Positions 1 to 62,817 of a stretch of 64,000 nucleotides of DNA are shown one piece after another. How positions within the stretch are numbered: the stretch's first letter is position 1; every line of letters begins with the position of its first letter. The position numbers were made by a program, and so were the translations under genes. The stretch is from Omnitrophica WOR_2 bacterium RIFCSPHIGHO2_02_FULL_50_17 (GTDB taxonomy: Bacteria > Omnitrophota > Gorgyraeia > Zapsychrales > Zapsychraceae). A model generated the notes under the pieces. It worked only from the letters and a program-made list of their open reading frames with translations, made no database searches and was not told where the DNA came from. The stretch covers positions 64,267 through 128,266 of the forward strand of contig MHGQ01000032.1 of the NCBI GenBank assembly GCA_001805645.1. Direction: 5' to 3'.

Positions 1-1228
1 AGAGCAGTGTCCGCGTGTCATTATCTTTTATTTTTTGATCAATCATTTTCTTCAACTCCTGGAATTCCTCTTCTATCTTCTTGTTAACGCCCTCCCATTC
101 AACCTTCATATGTTGACGCAACTCATCACGCAAGTATTCCCTTTGTTCATCTATAATCTTAATAACATCTGCCATGCTTTCTGTCTTGGCCTTTTCAACA
201 ACTATTGCGAAATTCTGCAAATCTCCCATTCTTTCAACCACCCTGCTGCGATGAGACAAGTTAAAATTCTTCAAAAAAAGAAATGTATTGTCAGCAAACC
301 CCTGATCCTCCTTGGAGTAAAGACGCGCCGTCAATTCCACGGGCTTATCCCCATTCTCTTTAGATAGCACTACAGTATTATATTTTCGAAATTCTCCAAT
401 CACGTTCCTGAATTTCAACATTGATTCCAGCGCATTCTTGTCGGAATATCTGGCCAATCCCGCACCTAAAAGGCCGAGGAATCCAAGAAAAAATATTATT
501 TTACCCAAACGCGGCCAAGGGATGAACCTGAATAAAAACACAAAAAATAACACTGCAAAAGCAAAGATATGCCCCCAAACCCTGGCCCGACCGCCGGCAA
601 AAAAGAAATCAATAGTTAAAAAATTCTTTGGCTCAAAATAAAAGGCAGGTGTATACAAAAGAAGCGCAAGCAACACTAGCTTGAGCCATTCGTTTTTGGG
701 CCTGCGCACAAGTATCAACCCTAAAATAAGATACGGAAAAACGAAATAATTATTAATGCTAATAAAGAATTTTATAATTAACAAGGCCGCCAGCAACCAT
801 ACAACCACTAAACGACCAAATAACTTCCTGTCCCAGAATTCATATCCAATCAAGGCAAATAGCGCATAATAAAAAAGCGCCGCATTACGGAACGCAAGCG
901 GGTTATTCTGATAATCGTGATACCCTTTCAATGCTTTCCATAAAATCCATAAGAAATAAATCAGGATGCCTGCATGCGCCCAAGTGAGGCTCTTTTTCTC
1001 CAGCCTCCACTTGAGAGCAAGCAAAAGAAAACAAACCATCAACAGGATTTCACCAATAAACATGGGGAAATTAAGGAAGGAAGGTCTTAGGTTGAGTTGG
1101 GCGAAAGATTTTGTAAAGATTGAACAAAGCGCACTATACGTCACAATAAGATAAAAACCGACCGTCGAAACAAGCTGGACATTGAAGATGCCCTGAAAGA
1201 AACGAAGTGGTTTTAAGGAACTGCTCAA
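1..1228 (-). CDS. Integral membrane protein with multi-TM N-terminus and a soluble C-terminal domain, possibly O-antigen ligase/polymerase-like; 3' end runs off the window
   Basis: Manual minus-strand translation is open from ~1249 (stop TAA at 1250-1252 in this frame) down to position 1 and reads like a real protein (…VSTVGFYLIVTYSALCSIF…ILLMVCFLLLAL…then hydrophilic …KENGDKPVELTARLYSKEDQGF…). It is absent from the ORF track because there is no in-window stop. A likely TTG start at 1226-1228 overlaps the TGA stop of the upstream GT2 gene. Confidence 0.5.
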   Translation of the reverse strand, partial: MSSSLKPLRFFQGIFNVQLVSTVGFYLIVTYSALCSIFTKSFAQLNLRPSFLNFPMFIGEILLMVCFLLLALKWRLEKKSLTWAHAGILIYFLWILWKALKGYHDYQNNPLAFRNAALFYYALFALIGYEFWDRKLFGRLVVVWLLAALLIIKFFISINNYFVFPYLILGLILVRRPKNEWLKLVLLALLLYTPAFYFEPKNFLTIDFFFAGGRARVWGHIFAFAVLFFVFLFRFIPWPRLGKIIFFLGFLGLLGAGLARYSDKNALESMLKFRNVIGEFRKYNTVVLSKENGDKPVELTARLYSKEDQGFADNTFLFLKNFNLSHRSRVVERMGDLQNFAIVVEKAKTESMADVIKIIDEQREYLRDELRQHMKVEWEGVNKKIEEEFQELKKMIDQKIKDNDTRTLL

Positions 1229-2163
1229 CGTATCTGGCTCCCAATTTGTTTATAGTTTCTTATAATTTTGTGACTCAATCTTCTAACCAGATCCTTGCGC
1301 AACAGAAAGAAATGAACAGCCATAAAAATACTCTTTAAATTAAGCGGGTAAACTCGCGAAGATTTCACAATCTCTTCCTTAAATTGTTTCAATTCGCCAG
1401 AGATCAGATATGCCTGCGCATATCGCAAATGTAAACCGGAAAAAGCCCGCCCGCGGAAAGACTCATCACGCGCATTACGGGTAAAATATTTTTCCAAAAC
1501 TCTAACCTCTTCTGCTTTTGATGCTGATAAATTCTTCAAAATATAATTGTTGGAAACACGGTATTTTGTTAATGGCAATCCTATGTATCCGACTCCATAG
1601 TTTTCGGACAACCTCAGCCACATATCCCAATCTGCCGGGGCAAAAATCCCTTCATCAAACAGGCCTACCCGCTCAAAACACGTCTTTCTGACGACCACGG
1701 TGGAATTGCAGATATAATTTCTAAGCAATAAACGATGTGTAATGTTTCCAAGATGCCGACTTTGGGAGTGAGAATATTCTTCTAAAACCTGCCCCTTTTC
1801 ATCAATAAAATAGGCCGCTGTGTGCACCAACCCATAATTGGGGTGGGAATCGAGATATTCCACGCAAAATTTTATTTTTCCCGGCAAATACAAGTCATCA
1901 CTATCGAGGAAGCCTATATACTCCCCTTGGGCCAGGGTGATGCCGACATTTCGCGCCTTGCATGCACCTTCATTTTTTTTATGAACATACCTTACCCTGC
2001 GGTCTAACCCTTCAAACTTTTTGCGCGTATCATCGGTCGACTCATTATCTATGACAATGATTTCAATATTCTTATATGTCTGTTCCAGAACACTCTGGAC
2101 AGTTTCAAAAACTAATTCAGCTCGATTATGCGTTGTTATAACAACACTGACCAAAGGATTCAC
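1225..2163 (-). CDS. Glycosyltransferase family 2
   Basis: N-terminal VSVVITTHNRAELV…IIVIDNESTDDT…GFLDSDD motifs typical of GT-A fold GT2 enzymes. Confidence 0.85.
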   Translation of the reverse strand: MNPLVSVVITTHNRAELVFETVQSVLEQTYKNIEIIVIDNESTDDTRKKFEGLDRRVRYVHKKNEGACKARNVGITLAQGEYIGFLDSDDLYLPGKIKFCVEYLDSHPNYGLVHTAAYFIDEKGQVLEEYSHSQSRHLGNITHRLLLRNYICNSTVVVRKTCFERVGLFDEGIFAPADWDMWLRLSENYGVGYIGLPLTKYRVSNNYILKNLSASKAEEVRVLEKYFTRNARDESFRGRAFSGLHLRYAQAYLISGELKQFKEEIVKSSRVYPLNLKSIFMAVHFFLLRKDLVRRLSHKIIRNYKQIGSQIR

Positions 2164-2204
2164 AATGATCCATCCTTAAATGAAAAATCCATGACAAGCC
2201 ACGA

Positions 2205-61032: not shown

Positions 61033-61042
61033 ATCTTGCTTT

Positions 61043-62017
61043 CTAGACGTGTTCTCTGTACCATTCAATGGTTTCTTTCAGGCCCTTTTCAAGAGAATAT
61101 CGGCCCTTCCACCCAAGGATCTCACAGGCTTTGCGGGAACAAAGATATTGATGCGGTATTTCGAATCTGGCCTGGTCAAGCACCCTGGGTTTAAGGTGCT
61201 TTTTGCCGATAATGCCCAGGATCTTTTCATGCAAATCAAGGACACTCATCGGTTCTTCATTGCTGAAATTAAATGCCTCGCCGGACAACTCCAATGCTTG
61301 CAATTTCTGGGCAAGCAGGATATACCCGTCGACGATATCCTTAACAAAAATATAATCCCGCGTGAATTTTCCGTTACTGCGGATGACGAATTGCTTATTG
61401 GACAAAGTACTGCGGATAGCATCCGGAACCAGTCTGGAAAAATGATAATCCCCCGGGCCGTAAATATTTCCACAACGCGTTATACACACAGGCAGCGTAT
61501 AAGTTTTGTAATAGGTCTGGCACAATAAATCCGTACAGCTCTTGGAAACGTCATACGGGTGTTCCCCGCGCAGGGCCACATCTTCTTTATATGGTAAATT
61601 CTTGTGGGTCCCATACGCCTTATCGCTTGAAGCTACTACAATGGCCTCAACGCCCCCGTTTTCTCGCGAAGCTTCCAGAATATTCCAGGTCCCGTTTATG
61701 TTCGTCCGAAAAGTCCTGACAGGATTGCGCAAAGATTCTCCAACGATGGCTTCAGCAGCCAAATGAAAAATGATCTGCGGCCTGAATTGCAGGATGATCG
61801 TTTTCACTAATTTAAAATTCGCGACATCGCCTTTTATCGCCGTAATTCTTTTGCTATTTCCATTTAAGACGGATAATGGCCGGCCGAGGGTTTTGTCCAA
61901 ACCGCAAATGTCGGCCCCATATTCCGATAAGGCATTCGTCAACCAAGACCCGAGAAAACCCTCATGCCCTGTTATAAGAACTTTTTTCTTGCGCCAAAAC
62001 TTATCTTTTGCACTCAT
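61043..62017 (-). CDS. rfbG: CDP-glucose 4,6-dehydratase
   Basis: FWRKKKVLITGHEGFLGSWL N-terminus matches the characteristic FWxGKxVxxTGHTGFKGxWL start of CDP-glucose 4,6-dehydratases; YDVSK catalytic motif. Confidence 0.8.
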   Translation of the reverse strand: MSAKDKFWRKKKVLITGHEGFLGSWLTNALSEYGADICGLDKTLGRPLSVLNGNSKRITAIKGDVANFKLVKTIILQFRPQIIFHLAAEAIVGESLRNPVRTFRTNINGTWNILEASRENGGVEAIVVASSDKAYGTHKNLPYKEDVALRGEHPYDVSKSCTDLLCQTYYKTYTLPVCITRCGNIYGPGDYHFSRLVPDAIRSTLSNKQFVIRSNGKFTRDYIFVKDIVDGYILLAQKLQALELSGEAFNFSNEEPMSVLDLHEKILGIIGKKHLKPRVLDQARFEIPHQYLCSRKACEILGWKGRYSLEKGLKETIEWYREHV

Positions 62018-62817
62018 GCCCAGACCTTCCAGAAAGCCTTATTCTCGTCCCACAATTGATTAAGCCTGTTATATTCCCTGGGAGTATCCATGCAGTCCCA
62101 AAATCCGGCATGTCTATAAATACCGACTTGGCCGTCCTGGACGATTTTGGGGATAATGTCCCGTTCCATGTTGACATTCCCTTCATCATGAAAATATTTG
62201 TCCAGTACGGCTCGATTAAACACCATGAATCCACCGTTAATCAAGCCAACGCTGACATTAGGCTTTTCATTAAACTCTACAATGCGATTGCCGGCCAATT
62301 CTATTTCGCCAAACCGTCCCGAGGGATGAACTCCTGTTATTGTCCCCAGCAACCCGTTTTTCTTGTGCGCCTCCAGCAATGCGGAAATATTTATATCTGC
62401 CACGCCGTCCCCATACGTCAGGCTGAACATCTCACAGTCGGCCAAATGTTTGCGAATGCTGCGAACGCGCGTGCCTGTCTCGGCGTAATCTCCTGTCTCC
62501 ACCAGCGTGACATTCCAGTTTTCCTCATCGGTTGAGTTGTGATATACAATTGAACTTTGTTTTCCCAGTGTCATGCTAAAATCAGACATTTTGGAATAAT
62601 AATTCAGAAAGAACTCTTTTATGACCCATCCCTTATATCCCAAGCACAAAATAAAATCATTATAGCCATAATGGGCATATATTTTCATAATATGCCAAAG
62701 AATTGGCCGGCCGCCGATAGAAATCATGGGTTTGGGAAGGACTTCTGAGACATCTTTGATTCGTGAACCTTGACCGCCGCACAAAATTACGACTTTTATT
62801 TTTTCTTTGGGTGCCAT
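62014..62817 (-). CDS. rfbF: Glucose-1-phosphate cytidylyltransferase
   Basis: KVVILCGGQGSRI (nucleotidyltransferase G-loop), C-terminal GFWDCMDTPREYNRLNQLW (classic RfbF FWQxMDTxR motif); first gene of the long operon. Confidence 0.85.
   Translation of the reverse strand: MAPKEKIKVVILCGGQGSRIKDVSEVLPKPMISIGGRPILWHIMKIYAHYGYNDFILCLGYKGWVIKEFFLNYYSKMSDFSMTLGKQSSIVYHNSTDEENWNVTLVETGDYAETGTRVRSIRKHLADCEMFSLTYGDGVADINISALLEAHKKNGLLGTITGVHPSGRFGEIELAGNRIVEFNEKPNVSVGLINGGFMVFNRAVLDKYFHDEGNVNMERDIIPKIVQDGQVGIYRHAGFWDCMDTPREYNRLNQLWDENKAFWKVWA

Follow-up and report, generated by a model that had tools for sequence, protein, structure and literature searches.

Surface-glycan loci can be very long: the rfb loci of Leptospira exceed 100 kb. 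For sugar-acylation cassettes, mechanistic precedents are available (PMC12148441, PMC4765723), the former defining the FxYxxF acyl-shuttle motif. Here we describe a locus of the same general kind, a very large example of it, in "Omnitrophica WOR_2 bacterium RIFCSPHIGHO2_02_FULL_50_17", a MAG from the Rifle aquifer that represents an uncultured groundwater member of Omnitrophota, as a preceding sequence-only reading had expected of the producing organism. That reading also called the block exceptionally long and richer in modification chemistry than described examples, which is unsupported because the Leptospira loci are longer than 100 kb, against at least 80 kb here.

The DNA analysed ("the window") comprises 64,000 nt. 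Because at least five assemblies, produced by different pipelines from different samples, are collinear with it (98.96-100% identity, jointly covering positions 1-64000), the window is genuine contiguous DNA and no chimera or misassembly. Some assemblies break at the multi-copy IS110 gene (6911..7939).

All 57 long non-nested ORFs are located on the minus strand, from 63740 down to 1, a count that takes in an upstream PP-loop gene outside the cluster and both halves of one frameshifted gene; every plus-strand ORF of at least 100 aa is nested within a minus-strand gene having a strong family match (Table 1). Coding sequence makes up 97% of the minus strand. On longest-ORF starts, neighbouring genes overlap at 33 of the 56 junctions and lie 0-20 nt apart at 14; with the starts of public gene callers the figures are 24 of 55, and 19 of 55 at 0-30 nt. 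The long, compact and co-directional glycan block of about 57 genes is thus real. Its upper limit, 62817, is a true 5' boundary, marked by a 239-nt gap beyond which lie the PP-loop gene and cobalamin genes, but its supposed lower limit, position 1, is merely the window edge. Since the block extends along this strand for about another 18.7 kb, the whole co-directional locus spans at least 80 kb (a lower bound) and about 73 genes, the window being its 5' three-quarters. The cobalamin genes share the strand of the block, and co-orientation may therefore be partly a genome-wide habit.

Transcription is probably driven by the near-consensus promoter 62925-62898, the best sigma70-like match in the window, which falls in the 239-nt gap ahead of the first gene, rfbF. 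The leader also carries GGCGGTAG, present in one copy only in the window and identical to the core of the enterobacterial ops/JUMPStart element; no Rfam model matches this site. Terminator-like sites in the window show no excess over shuffled expectation. Part of the block may be separately transcribed or decaying, as is suggested by five gaps above 100 nt under longest-ORF starts (62818-63056, 39820-40115, 32086-32241, 7940-8164, 3771-3992), a sixth under gene callers' starts (11440-11793), and the IS110 element and frameshifted gene inside it. The site of the frameshift is an A7 run of a Gfo/Idh/MocA gene (T7 on the plus strand, 36898-36904); independent assemblies carry the identical split, and deletion of one A restores a 356-aa ORF.

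The locus has a conserved 3' core, common to Omnitrophota, and about 60 kb upstream devoted to lineage-specific sugar synthesis and decoration. One related locus consists of the core only (about 13.5 kb) with unrelated genes on its flanks, and two others differ in their variable gene sets. On this comparison the 60 kb of the window appear to be a lineage-specific variable region.

All gene functions were assigned by sequence and models, families being called from Pfam and NCBIfam matches with curated cutoffs where given and the remaining genes at Pfam level. Family matches bear out CDP-hexose and CMP-nonulosonic-acid synthesis, carbamoyl, formyl, acetamidino, methyl, acyl, sulfate and hydroxy-acyl chemistry, as well as the ABC exporter, GT2s and a ligase/polymerase-like (Wzy_C) protein, all proposed earlier. 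Other items of that inventory need correction: four Gfo/Idh/MocA genes are indeed present but one is frameshifted, the four SDRs are six extended-SDR genes and one classical SDR, and the single aminotransferase is of HisC/CobD-like (class I/II) and not DegT sugar type. Neither a DegT-type aminotransferase nor an N-acetyltransferase was found among family matches in the window. Both NeuB proteins and all five CMP-transferase paralogues score below equivalog cutoffs. The WbuZ-HisH fusion is a predicted amidotransferase pair for acetamidino formation.

The orphan sulfotransferase-like protein, encoded near the APS kinase, has no Pfam match and no PDB sequence match, and only three homologues among 5.8 billion proteins. 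It contains PSB-like TTSGAGSH (38210-38233) and PB-like VRDPLDNIAS (37778-37807) motifs, and the top 15 Foldseek PDB matches of its low-confidence model (pLDDT 57) are all sulfotransferases.

Near the 5' end lies a cassette whose FkbH-like protein is composed of FkbH_N, HAD-IIIC (DLDNTLW) and a C-terminal transfer domain. The C-terminus of its MBOAT protein reads FIYFRF and so conforms to the acyl-shuttle motif, and its DltD-like protein resembles an ORF family that follows MBOAT in other FkbH loci (hhalign 96.4%, E 1e-9). The cassette is predicted from these features to add glyceryl/lactyl esters outside the cytoplasm; a sugar-acylation module of FkbH, ACP, MaoC-reductase, MBOAT and DltD-like protein has not been described previously.

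Table 1. Features of the window, in the direction of transcription
Coordinates	Strand	Feature	Evidence or remark
62898..62925	-	sigma70-like promoter match	TTGACA-16 nt-TACAAT, 11/12
62827..62834	-	ops-like GGCGGTAG, exact	coding strand, 9 nt 5' of first ATG
62014..62817	-	Glucose-1-phosphate cytidylyltransferase (RfbF), first gene	TIGR02623, 317.6 bits > cutoff 300; GenBank OGX38727
61043..62017	-	CDP-glucose 4,6-dehydratase-like extended SDR	TIGR02622 235 bits < cutoff 278; Pfam GDP_Man_Dehyd
60118..61068	-	Extended SDR epimerase/reductase	Pfam Epimerase 2.7e-34
59672..60121	-	Cupin sugar 3,5-epimerase/ketoisomerase-like	PF00908 7.8e-8
58798..59679	-	GT2	PF00535 2e-15
58180..58785	-	201-aa protein, possible regulator	weak MarR-like winged-helix N-terminus, PF01047 E 0.0036, below cutoff
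56409..58193	-	FkbH-like glyceryl-loading enzyme	TIGR01686 303.7 bits, cutoff 146
56155..56457	-	Acyl carrier protein	PF00550; DSL phosphopantetheine site
55737..56150	-	MaoC-type dehydratase	PF01575 3.9e-11
55015..55773	-	Classical SDR (FabG-like ketoreductase)	PF00106 4.7e-28
53600..55009	-	MBOAT membrane O-acyltransferase	PF03062; WHG histidine
52504..53628	-	DltD/SGNH-like MBOAT partner, membrane-anchored	PF04914 E 0.007; GTSR serine, DNLH
50526..52496	-	PFTS-motif polysaccharide biosynthesis protein, candidate transferase	TIGR04417 111.9 bits, cutoff 100
48732..50516	-	CMP-sugar synthetase domain (CTP_transf_3) + D-2-hydroxyacid dehydrogenase, fused	
47711..48745	-	Gfo/Idh/MocA oxidoreductase	PF01408
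46681..47682	-	Gfo/Idh/MocA oxidoreductase	PF01408
45284..46684	-	GT2, 466 aa	PF00535 8.7e-24
44208..45254	-	NeuB-family nonulosonic acid synthase, copy 1	PF03102 4.9e-76; TIGR03569 314.6 bits < cutoff 399.65
43367..44227	-	CMP-sugar synthetase (CTP_transf_3)	63% identity with N-terminal domain of 48732-50516 fusion
42219..43448	-	Gfo/Idh/MocA oxidoreductase	
41180..42259	-	SAM methyltransferase	Methyltransf_23
40116..41183	-	Ldh_2 family (malate/L-sulfolactate-type) dehydrogenase	PF02615 4e-102
39253..39819	-	APS kinase (PAPS-forming)	PF01583 1.2e-60
38276..39247	-	D-2-hydroxyacid dehydrogenase family protein	PF02826 3.2e-43
37175..38260	-	Orphan sulfotransferase-like protein	sulfotransferase motifs, fold matches
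36099..37185	-	Gfo/Idh/MocA oxidoreductase, frameshifted	+1 frameshift in A7 run splits gene
34979..36079	-	Acyltransferase-3 (AT3) membrane O-acyltransferase	PF01757
34060..35022	-	SAM methyltransferase	Methyltransf_11
32242..34056	-	NodU/CmcH-type O-carbamoyltransferase	PF02543 1.3e-92, PF16861 1.6e-72
30586..32085	-	GDSL/SGNH protein, membrane-anchored	homologues adjoin FkbH in other phyla
28806..30620	-	LIC12162-family transferase	TIGR04331 432.9 bits, cutoff 225; family named for a Leptospira gene
27751..28791	-	NeuB-family nonulosonic acid synthase, copy 2	TIGR03569 383.8 bits, cutoff 399.65
26805..27797	-	Extended SDR epimerase/dehydratase	
25631..26866	-	NeuC-type UDP-GlcNAc 2-epimerase	TIGR03568 394.9 bits, cutoff 235.9
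24165..25634	-	HisF-like (WbuZ) + HisH-like fusion	TIGR03572 267.7 bits < cutoff 299.7; HisH 207 bits > cutoff
23443..24168	-	Formyltransferase	PF00551
22442..23410	-	Polysaccharide deacetylase family protein	PF01522
21235..22500	-	WbuX N-acetyl sugar amidotransferase	TIGR03573 351.4 bits, cutoff 203
20522..21280	-	CMP-sugar synthetase (CTP_transf_3)	
18723..20522	-	Fused TMD-NBD ABC exporter (HepA/MsbA/PglK-like)	candidate lipid-linked glycan flippase/exporter
17974..18726	-	CMP-sugar synthetase-like (CTP_transf_3)	
16940..17977	-	FkbM-family methyltransferase	
15781..16962	-	Radical SAM/SPASM enzyme	
14665..15762	-	Class I/II PLP enzyme, HisC/CobD-like	TIGR01141 272 bits, cutoff 276.55
13772..14668	-	Extended SDR	
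11794..13764	-	656-aa protein	no family match
10036..11790	-	Polytopic membrane protein, 584 aa, ~10 or more TM segments	in-frame G9 run (C9 on the plus strand, 11447-11455); start lies beyond it in gene callers' models (467 aa)
8165..10030	-	4,6-dehydratase-like SDR + polyprenyl-phosphate GT2-like, fused	AglJ/Dol-P-hexose transferase-like
6911..7939	-	IS110-family transposase	inserted within block; multi-copy
5530..6954	-	B12-binding radical SAM enzyme, candidate C-methyltransferase	
4655..5575	-	Extended SDR	
3993..4661	-	HAD phosphatase	
2205..3770	-	B12-binding radical SAM enzyme	
1225..2163	-	GT2	PF00535 8.6e-33
1..1228	-	Wzy_C-like (polymerase/ligase-like) polytopic protein, N-terminal 409/652 aa	PF04932 6.6e-7, below cutoff; runs off window

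Beyond the window the same strand completes the 652-aa Wzy_C-like protein and encodes GT4, a DUF8201 protein, a PMT_2-like protein (636 aa) and WecG, and further on a Bac_transf protein that carries CoA_binding_3, a 433-aa Wzy_C protein and a Laminin_G_3-Wzy_C protein (749 aa). Three GT-C or GT-C-like membrane proteins are encoded in these 18.7 kb. GT-C-like proteins had been claimed for the window itself; the fold is shown for only one, the downstream DUF8201 protein, the top 10 PDB matches of whose model (pLDDT 91.5) are all GT-C enzymes (ALG12, ALG9, ArnT, PglB, STT3 and Pmt4). The idea of a flagellin glycosylation island, to which the block had been likened, is unlikely: about 84 kb hold no flagellin or Maf-type gene, and instead encode lipid-linked, periplasmic-face machinery (Bac_transf, WecG, Wzy_C, the modelled GT-C and other GT-C-like proteins). 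None of the genes wzx, wzz, wza/wzc and kps turned up in the same 84 kb, and the ABC exporter falls short of all curated cutoffs (HepA family 419 bits, MsbA 356, PglK 219); the export route is therefore putative.

Taken together, sequence and structural models make it likely that the locus specifies an undecaprenyl-phosphate-linked, O-antigen-like, heavily decorated cell-surface heteroglycan. Cytoplasmic enzymes would supply activated sugars, namely a CDP-6-deoxyhexose together with two or more CMP-nonulosonic or ulosonic acids, the latter through NeuC, two NeuB and five CMP-transferase paralogues, with N-formyl and acetamidino groups introduced by the deacetylase, formyltransferase and WbuX/WbuZ-HisH. 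The Bac_transf phosphoglycosyltransferase, encoded just past the window, would initiate the lipid-linked glycan, which WecG, GT2, GT4, LIC12162-family and PFTS proteins would extend; methyl, carbamoyl and sulfate groups would be attached, sulfation employing APS kinase and the orphan sulfotransferase. After presumed passage across the inner membrane via the MsbA/PglK/HepA-like exporter, Wzy_C proteins outside the cytoplasm may polymerise and/or ligate the glycan, while GT-C enzymes would add side sugars from polyprenyl-phosphate sugars supplied by the SDR::GT2 fusion. Acylation would be accomplished by AT3 and by the FkbH cassette, the latter delivering a glyceryl/lactyl ester, and the finished glycan may be transferred to lipid A-core or to protein, the candidates for its final acceptor.

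The glycan genes of the window form a dense array on a single strand. Fifty-seven long, non-nested ORFs, a count that takes in the upstream PP-loop gene and both halves of one frameshifted gene, run from 63740 down to 1, all on the minus strand, which is 97% coding. ORFs of at least 80 amino acids amount to 22,553 residues here against 6,267 on the plus strand, where every ORF is nested in a minus-strand gene with a strong family match. When the longest-ORF starts are taken, neighbouring genes overlap at 33 of 56 junctions and are spaced by 0-20 nt at a further 14 (47 of 56 together); with the starts of public gene callers, overlaps occur at 24 of 55 junctions and spacings of 0-30 nt at 19. 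The one-strand gene array is thus real and well above chance. GC skew of the plus strand is negative throughout the window, and GC content ranges from 0.40 to 0.51. The stretch 40001-50000, which holds the first NeuB block, has a GC content of 0.48-0.51 against 0.40-0.46 elsewhere, a contrast that suggests mosaic acquisition. No tRNA genes or tandem repeats were found in the window.

Upstream of position 62817, where the first gene of the block begins, lies a gap of 239 nt, followed by a PP-loop ATPase-like gene (Diphthami_syn_2) and by CobS, CobT and CobU; the gap is taken as the 5' end of the glycan block. At the other side, the edge of the window is not the end of the block. Genes of the same strand continue past the window start, so the co-directional block spans at least about 80 kb, with about 73 genes, both being lower bounds because its 3' end lies beyond the examined DNA. 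The junction counts, the coding density and this extension bear out the long, compact, co-directional block described in the sequence-only reading.

In GenBank, the genes of the window correspond to OGX38676 to OGX38727 (locus tags A3D87_03330 upward) on a contig of 128,388 bp, and seven of the eight genes looked up are annotated as "hypothetical protein". Their order is identical in contigs obtained from several samples by three pipelines, namely MEGAHIT ENA assemblies, Logan and the original ANAN16 scaffolds. Positions 1-64000 are jointly covered by collinear contigs, which are 98.96-100% identical to the window (Table). A chimeric block, misjoined from separate loci, had been named from the outset as the outcome that would refute the description. 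The sole assembly break, the end of two contigs of the assembly ERZ4903137, falls within the gene for an IS110 transposase; the element is multi-copy, with 13 near-identical cluster members found mostly on short contigs. It is, however, read through by the GenBank contig and by at least one further contig (L001/L182), and the genes on either side of it share strand and theme. As independent assemblies are collinear and the IS110 element is spanned, an assembly chimera is scarcely credible and was rejected.

Features of the locus in transcription order, followed by contigs from other assemblies that are collinear with the window (gene calls rest on Pfam and NCBIfam family matches)
Position	Strand	Content
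62817-58798	minus	RfbF (above curated cutoff), CDP-glucose 4,6-dehydratase-like SDR, SDR, cupin epimerase/isomerase, GT2
58785-50526	minus	weak MarR-like protein, FkbH cassette, PFTS-motif protein
in 50516-40116	minus	CMP-transferase::2-hydroxyacid dehydrogenase fusion, two Gfo/Idh/MocA, 466-aa GT2, NeuB copy 1
in 50516-40116, after NeuB copy 1	minus	CMP-transferase, third Gfo enzyme, methyltransferase, Ldh_2 dehydrogenase
in 39819-32242	minus	APS kinase, 2-hydroxyacid dehydrogenase, 361-aa orphan, frameshifted Gfo gene
in 39819-32242, after Gfo gene	minus	AT3 acyltransferase, methyltransferase, NodU-type carbamoyltransferase
in 32085-20522	minus	membrane GDSL protein, LIC12162-family transferase, NeuB copy 2, SDR, NeuC
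in 32085-20522, after NeuC	minus	WbuZ-HisH fusion, formyltransferase, deacetylase, WbuX, CMP-transferase
in 20522-8165	minus	ABC exporter, fifth CMP-transferase-like protein, FkbM methyltransferase, radical SAM/SPASM
in 20522-8165	minus	HisC/CobD-like PLP enzyme, SDR, 656-aa protein without assignment, 584-aa polytopic membrane protein
end of 20522-8165	minus	SDR::GT2 fusion, like polyprenyl-phosphate hexose transferases such as AglJ
7939-1	minus	IS110, two B12-radical SAM, SDR, HAD phosphatase, GT2, Wzy_C-like protein
across window start, first 409 aa inside window	same strand	Wzy_C-like protein, 652 aa
downstream, after 652-aa Wzy_C-like protein	same strand	SDR, NTP-transferase, epimerase, GT4
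downstream of window	same strand	membrane protein, 484 aa
L180 (DNA downstream of window start) 10001-11650	same strand	DUF8201-family membrane protein, 549 aa
downstream of window	same strand	PMT_2-like protein, 636 aa
downstream of window	same strand	WecG/TagA-type transferase
about 11-13 kb beyond window start	same strand	Bac_transf + CoA_binding_3 phosphoglycosyltransferase, 474 aa
downstream of window	same strand	Wzy_C protein, 433 aa, and two epimerases
downstream of window	same strand	Laminin_G_3-Wzy_C protein, 749 aa
after Laminin_G_3-Wzy_C protein	same strand	TPR protein, running off the fetched DNA
window 1-12163		contig L001, collinear (blastn)
window 10522-31280		contig L089, collinear (blastn)
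window 30116-51183		contig L094, collinear (blastn)
window 52014-64000		contig L005, collinear (blastn)

The first five genes of the block are predicted to form a CDP-6-deoxyhexose branch, which lacks E1/E3-type genes for 3,6-dideoxy sugars. Synthesis of CMP-activated nonulosonic acids, already proposed from the sequence, was confirmed at the level of families by two NeuB-type Pfam matches, a NeuC above its cutoff and five CTP_transf_3 proteins in the window. Both NeuB proteins and all five CMP-transferases score below the equivalog cutoffs, so the acidic sugars are predicted at the level of families. Neither a DegT-type aminotransferase nor an N-acetyltransferase, as needed for the 5,7-diamino acids Leg and Pse, was found in the window, and its sole PLP enzyme is HisC/CobD-like. 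The list of functions compiled earlier was therefore largely right at family level, but its aminotransferase is not a sugar aminotransferase of the DegT type, and in place of four SDR enzymes there are six extended SDRs and one classical SDR. The CMP-transferases outnumber the two NeuB genes, and the CMP-sugar synthetase domains encoded at 43367-44227 and 48732-50516 are 63% identical, the latter being fused to a D-2-hydroxyacid dehydrogenase. The acetamidino enzymes resemble WbuX, WbuY and WbuZ of O-antigen loci: WbuX scores above its curated cutoff, and both a HisF-like WbuZ and a HisH-like domain are present. In contrast to those loci, the last two are fused into one protein of 489 amino acids, and WbuZ stays below its cutoff (267.7 bits of 299.7).

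Sulfate decoration, another element of the sequence-only reading, is supported by an APS kinase (204 bits in Pfam) and by a probable sulfotransferase. The latter is a protein of 361 amino acids (37175-38260) with just three homologues among 5.8 billion proteins; it matches no Pfam family or PDB sequence, and PDB sequence searches with four unannotated proteins and with a three-sequence profile gave no real match. It carries the motifs TTSGAGSH, in a strand-loop-helix, and VRDPLDNIAS, which resemble the 5'-PSB and 3'-PB motifs known from sulfotransferases. AlphaFold gave a low-confidence model (pLDDT 57), whose top 15 Foldseek matches in PDB are nevertheless all sulfotransferases, headed by TPST1 (E 4.6e-5) and followed by OLS and CurM domains. 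The gene lies one gene downstream of that for APS kinase, with a 2-hydroxyacid dehydrogenase between them. No ATP sulfurylase was found in the locus.

Comparison with relatives separates the locus into two parts. The 549-aa protein of the DUF8201 family has more than 300 homologues at 43-55% identity, and those with an organism name all belong to Omnitrophica/Omnitrophota. The family marks a conserved core composed of WecG, Bac_transf, Wzy_C and two epimerases. In GCA_020632535.1, a set of about 13.5 kb stands alone between unrelated genes, in the order GT4, methyltransferase, 466-aa protein, DUF8201, 328-aa protein, GT2, WecG, Bac_transf, Wzy_C, two epimerases, Wzy_C. A long-read contig ends in the same core, followed by RpiB and GAPDH on the opposite strand, and in GCA_021735655.1 the GT-C and WecG genes are found amid a different set of sugar genes. 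Since relatives carry the core alone or with other sugar genes, the window is best described as a lineage-specific variable region, about 60 kb long, joined to the upstream side of a phylum-conserved core. The same combination of conserved core and hypervariable region is known from O-antigen loci of well-studied bacteria.

Among described loci, the rfb (LPS O-antigen) locus of Leptospira interrogans, whose genes lie almost all on one strand, comes closest in scale and content. It is highly strain-variable and thought to be horizontally exchanged, and the LIC12162 transferase family takes its name from a Leptospira gene. The two loci belong to different phyla, and Leptospira has Wzx, Wzy and WcaJ, whereas here an ABC exporter is present and no Wzx was found. 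As the rfb locus reportedly exceeds 100 kb in some strains (PMC13111663), the claims that the present block is exceptionally long and holds more modification chemistry than described examples are not established. By convention, a MarR gene marks the limit of the Leptospira locus (PMC12457778); in the window, a 201-aa protein with a weak MarR-like winged helix (58180-58785) lies within the block. A literature search found no paper that connects nonulosonic acids or glycosylation with Omnitrophota. Taken as a whole, this is a new and very large example of a known locus type, in a sequence that is already public.

We consider that the locus probably directs the synthesis of an O-antigen-like surface glycan linked to undecaprenyl phosphate, with a conserved core and a large decoration region. 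Genes for nucleotide sugars (RfbF, dehydratases, two NeuB, NeuC and five CTP_transf_3) are clustered with four GT2 transferases, and GT4 and WecG follow downstream. A single initiating phosphoglycosyltransferase, of the Bac_transf family, was seen in about 84 kb. Together with the WecG, GT2 and GT4 transferases, one MsbA/PglK/HepA-like ABC exporter, three Wzy_C proteins of 652 (weak match), 433 and 749 amino acids, one GT-C protein and other GT-C-like polytopic proteins, a GT2 domain resembling polyprenyl-phosphate sugar synthases and two classes of membrane acyltransferases, it points to a glycan that would be built on undecaprenyl phosphate, its late steps taking place at the periplasmic face. 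The DUF8201 protein confidently models as a GT-C glycosyltransferase fold (pLDDT 91.5), its ten best PDB matches all being GT-C proteins (ALG12, ALG9, ArnT, PglB, STT3 and Pmt4). In the Wzk/WaaL and PglK pathways, assembly of the glycan on undecaprenyl-PP is finished in the cytoplasm; an MsbA-like ABC half-transporter then flips the glycan, and a Wzy_C-type ligase or an oligosaccharyltransferase transfers it. The same logic is proposed here, by likeness to Wzk/WaaL of Helicobacter pylori and PglK of Campylobacter jejuni. Differences from these systems are that the fused ABC protein scores below every NCBIfam cutoff (HepA 419 of 725, MsbA 356 of 602 and PglK 219 of 1000 bits), that three Wzy_C and several GT-C or GT-C-like proteins are present, and that the locus is about ten times larger. 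Lipid A-core is named as the acceptor only tentatively, with a confidence that stops just short of an even balance; apart from transfer to proteins, the alternatives are a capsule-like product or several products.

General O-glycosylation of pilins, S-layer or other surface proteins by a PglL/PilO-type oligosaccharyltransferase would suit the three Wzy_C-domain proteins, one of which is fused to Laminin_G_3 and followed by a TPR protein, as well as the match of the exporter to PglK and the lack of Wzz and Wzx. Wzy_C domains are nevertheless common to ligases, polymerases and PglL-type O-oligosaccharyltransferases and hence do not discriminate, no acceptor gene for pilin, S-layer protein or flagellin occurs in the window and its flanks of about 20 kb (about 84 kb in all), and the LIC12162 family and the overall layout recall LPS loci, so that we regard proteins as unlikely acceptors. 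A glycosylation island for flagellin or cytoplasmic proteins in the style of Campylobacter or Helicobacter, to which the block had also been likened, is highly improbable: neither flagellin nor Maf/DUF115 or FlmG genes occur in the window or its flanks, and Bac_transf, GT-C, Wzy_C, MBOAT, AT3 and the ABC exporter are machinery that flagellin glycosylation does not use, even if the two NeuB, NeuC, several CMP-transferases and the acetamidino and formyl enzymes recall such islands. The best family match of the ABC protein is to HepA, exporter of the heterocyst envelope polysaccharide, which could speak for a secreted capsule or exopolysaccharide. Its 419 bits are far under the cutoff of 725, though, and no Wzx, Wzz, Wza/Wzc or Kps genes (including KpsD/E, for outer-membrane export and co-polymerase function) were found in the 84 kb, which leaves this product very unlikely; a capsule exported by Wza/Kps was rejected on that absence. 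A secondary-metabolite cluster was likewise rejected, as no PKS/NRPS genes are present and Bac_transf and Wzy_C are.

The division of the O-antigen-like locus into two or more head-to-tail glycan loci, with separate promoters and different products, is bound up with the question of a single operon. Gaps of more than 100 nt, one of them very AT-rich, occur at 62818-63056, 39820-40115, 32086-32241, 7940-8164 and 3771-3992 when the longest-ORF starts are taken, and a sixth, 11440-11793, appears with the gene callers' starts only. GC content differs among blocks (0.42-0.48), which also fits piecemeal acquisition; there are two NeuB-centred blocks, with a second set of NTP-transferase, epimerase and GT4 downstream; one relative has the core alone; and an IS110 element sits within the block. 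Against several loci, the examined DNA of about 84 kb showed a single initiating phosphoglycosyltransferase and a single ABC exporter, overlaps predominate at junctions within and between blocks, and terminator-like hairpins are no commoner than in shuffled background in any segment of the window. The best sigma70-like match of the entire window, TTGACA-16-TACAAT at 62925-62898, lies in the gap before the first gene, and a near-consensus promoter was found solely at this 5' end in a scan whose rules may differ from those of Omnitrophota promoters. Separate loci are, on balance, somewhat unlikely. A single operon is a candidate reading, favoured by the junction statistics, the lone 5' promoter and the background level of hairpins and disfavoured by the gaps and the IS110 element.

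Downstream of this promoter match, in the predicted 5' UTR, the exact ops core GGCGGTAG is found on the coding (non-template) strand at 62834-62827, 9 nt before the first ATG. It is the sole copy on both strands of the 64 kb, where 0.66 copies are expected, and the chance of its occurrence in an 80-nt leader on the correct strand is estimated at about 4e-4. The full ops element of 12 nt has the consensus GGCGGTAGnnTG; the leader reads GGCGGTAGTTTT, its last two (3') bases being unmatched. The first gene has no Shine-Dalgarno-like sequence, which 30 of 56 genes possess. Even with one mismatch allowed, no copy occurs in any other gap of the window. Rfam searches gave nothing meaningful for the whole window at gathering threshold and, with the limit relaxed to E 10, chance matches only for the leader; the predicted fold of the 5' UTR is not unusual (z = 0). 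The motif is conserved among strain variants only and is absent from all 64 regions upstream of distant RfbF homologues in a metagenome scan (best match 52% identical); a text search of the literature for the ops sequence returned primers only. Likeness to RfaH/ops (JUMPStart) of Proteobacteria thus consists in an exact core on the non-template strand of a leader and a very long polysaccharide block downstream, whereas the 12-nt element is incomplete, no Rfam model matches and conservation is limited to strain variants. We know of no use of RfaH in the phylum Omnitrophota, and the ops-like signal is offered as a lead rather than as a finding.

Three sites show signs of decay or variation. An additional A in an A7 run (T7 at 36898-36904) interrupts the Gfo/Idh/MocA gene at 36099-37185, identically in independent assemblies; deletion of one A restores an ORF of 356 amino acids. 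This marks the gene as a pseudogene or else the run as prone to slippage. In the 584-aa membrane ORF, a G9 run (C9 on the plus strand, 11447-11455) lies in frame, and gene callers place their start after it (467 aa). It is a possible phase-variation tract, with no length variation among consensus assemblies. The IS110 transposase gene (6911-7939) lies on the same strand as its neighbours, between the SDR::GT2 fusion and a B12-radical SAM gene; a search for an IS110-free allele found none.

What goes beyond known systems is a carrier-protein-dependent MBOAT cassette (52504-58193), which is not limited to this organism. Its FkbH-like protein matches TIGR01686 with 303.7 bits and has the HAD motif DLDNTLW, and it is accompanied by an ACP with a DSL site, a MaoC dehydratase, a FabG-like reductase and an MBOAT protein with the catalytic histidine in WHG. 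The MBOAT C-terminus, FIYFRF, conforms to the FxYxxF acyl-shuttle motif. The adjoining protein of 374 amino acids has one N-terminal TM segment, a GTSR serine and a DNLH motif, and matches the DltD family of Pfam weakly (E 0.007). For comparison, 80 genome loci encoding FkbH relatives of 39-48% identity were collected (the best match in a scan of GTDB genomes being 48% identical), from Acidobacteriota, Alphaproteobacteria, Bacteroidota, with many Chryseobacterium, and others. The ACP gene is present in 72 of these 80 loci and MBOAT in 63-65, the MaoC dehydratase in 16-17 and the reductase in 16-29. FxYxxF C-termini occur in 65 of 73 FkbH-linked MBOATs, and in 50 of 61 loci an ORF of at least 230 amino acids follows MBOAT; the largest family of such ORFs is remotely homologous to the 374-aa partner (hhalign 96.4%, E 1e-9; hmmsearch 2.9e-9). 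From this co-occurrence and the shared partner family, FkbH, ACP, MBOAT and partner are judged to be a conserved four-gene module, which recurs in at least 60 genomes of several phyla. A literature search found no paper combining FkbH with MBOAT or DltB; the module appears to be undescribed so far, and all its functional steps are inferred. Elsewhere in the window, 24 kb from the cassette, lies a gene for a GDSL membrane protein (30586-32085) whose homologues adjoin FkbH in Bryobacterales and Granulicella (L010 8797-9954 and L026 8615-9940, two of the FkbH loci); its product may also take part in the acylation system.

Loading of a glyceryl unit onto ACP by FkbH is established in polyketide pathways. 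The FkbH protein of the cassette would likewise charge its ACP with a glyceryl unit, and where the dehydratase and reductase are present, glyceryl-ACP may become lactyl-ACP. The terminal tyrosine of MBOAT would then carry the acyl group through the membrane, and the SGNH partner would esterify the glycan with it. Lactyl-ACP is formed by DH-KR proteins in the biosynthesis of FR901464 and lankacidin (PMC4765723), where FkbH domain, ACP, dehydratase and ketoreductase likewise occur together; in the cassette, by contrast, the enzymes stand alone, the dehydratase is of MaoC type, there is no PKS, and the acyl group is proposed to pass to MBOAT instead of a ketosynthase. With Dlt (DltABCD/X) and PatA/PatB the cassette shares an MBOAT with catalytic histidine, a membrane-anchored SGNH/DltD-like partner and the FxYxxF motif, the tyrosine of which carries the acyl group in PatA and DltX (PMC12148441). 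A dedicated carrier protein is shared with Dlt only, other MBOAT/SGNH pathways being without one (PMC12148441). Unlike Dlt, which employs the adenylating DltA, the cassette would be loaded by FkbH with glyceryl from a glycolytic intermediate, and no AMP-binding (DltA-type) loader was found for it. Nor was a DltX microprotein: the shuttle motif is fused to MBOAT, as in PatA. Further differences from both systems are the added dehydratase and reductase, in 16-29 of 80 loci, and the target, presumably a glycan and not teichoic acid or peptidoglycan.

We propose that the cassette performs carrier-protein-dependent glyceryl or lactyl esterification of extracytoplasmic glycans and that the ops core reflects RfaH-like antitermination outside Proteobacteria, a joint proposal that we would doubt slightly sooner than assert. 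If it is true, the cassette is a second Dlt-like system, with an acyl group drawn from glycolysis, and the ops-like signal allows a transcription unit of 80 kb. Bacteria of the phylum Omnitrophota are abundant and often very small, and most are uncultured; to devote at least 80 kb to a single surface glycan would be a large investment in surface diversity. The locus also offers candidates for glyco-engineering in its orphan sulfotransferase, PFTS and LIC12162 proteins and B12-radical SAM enzymes. Of all the results, the cassette lends itself best to reuse: it is widespread, occurs in culturable Chryseobacterium, and predicts a glycan ester and a donor for MBOAT-SGNH systems that would both be new.
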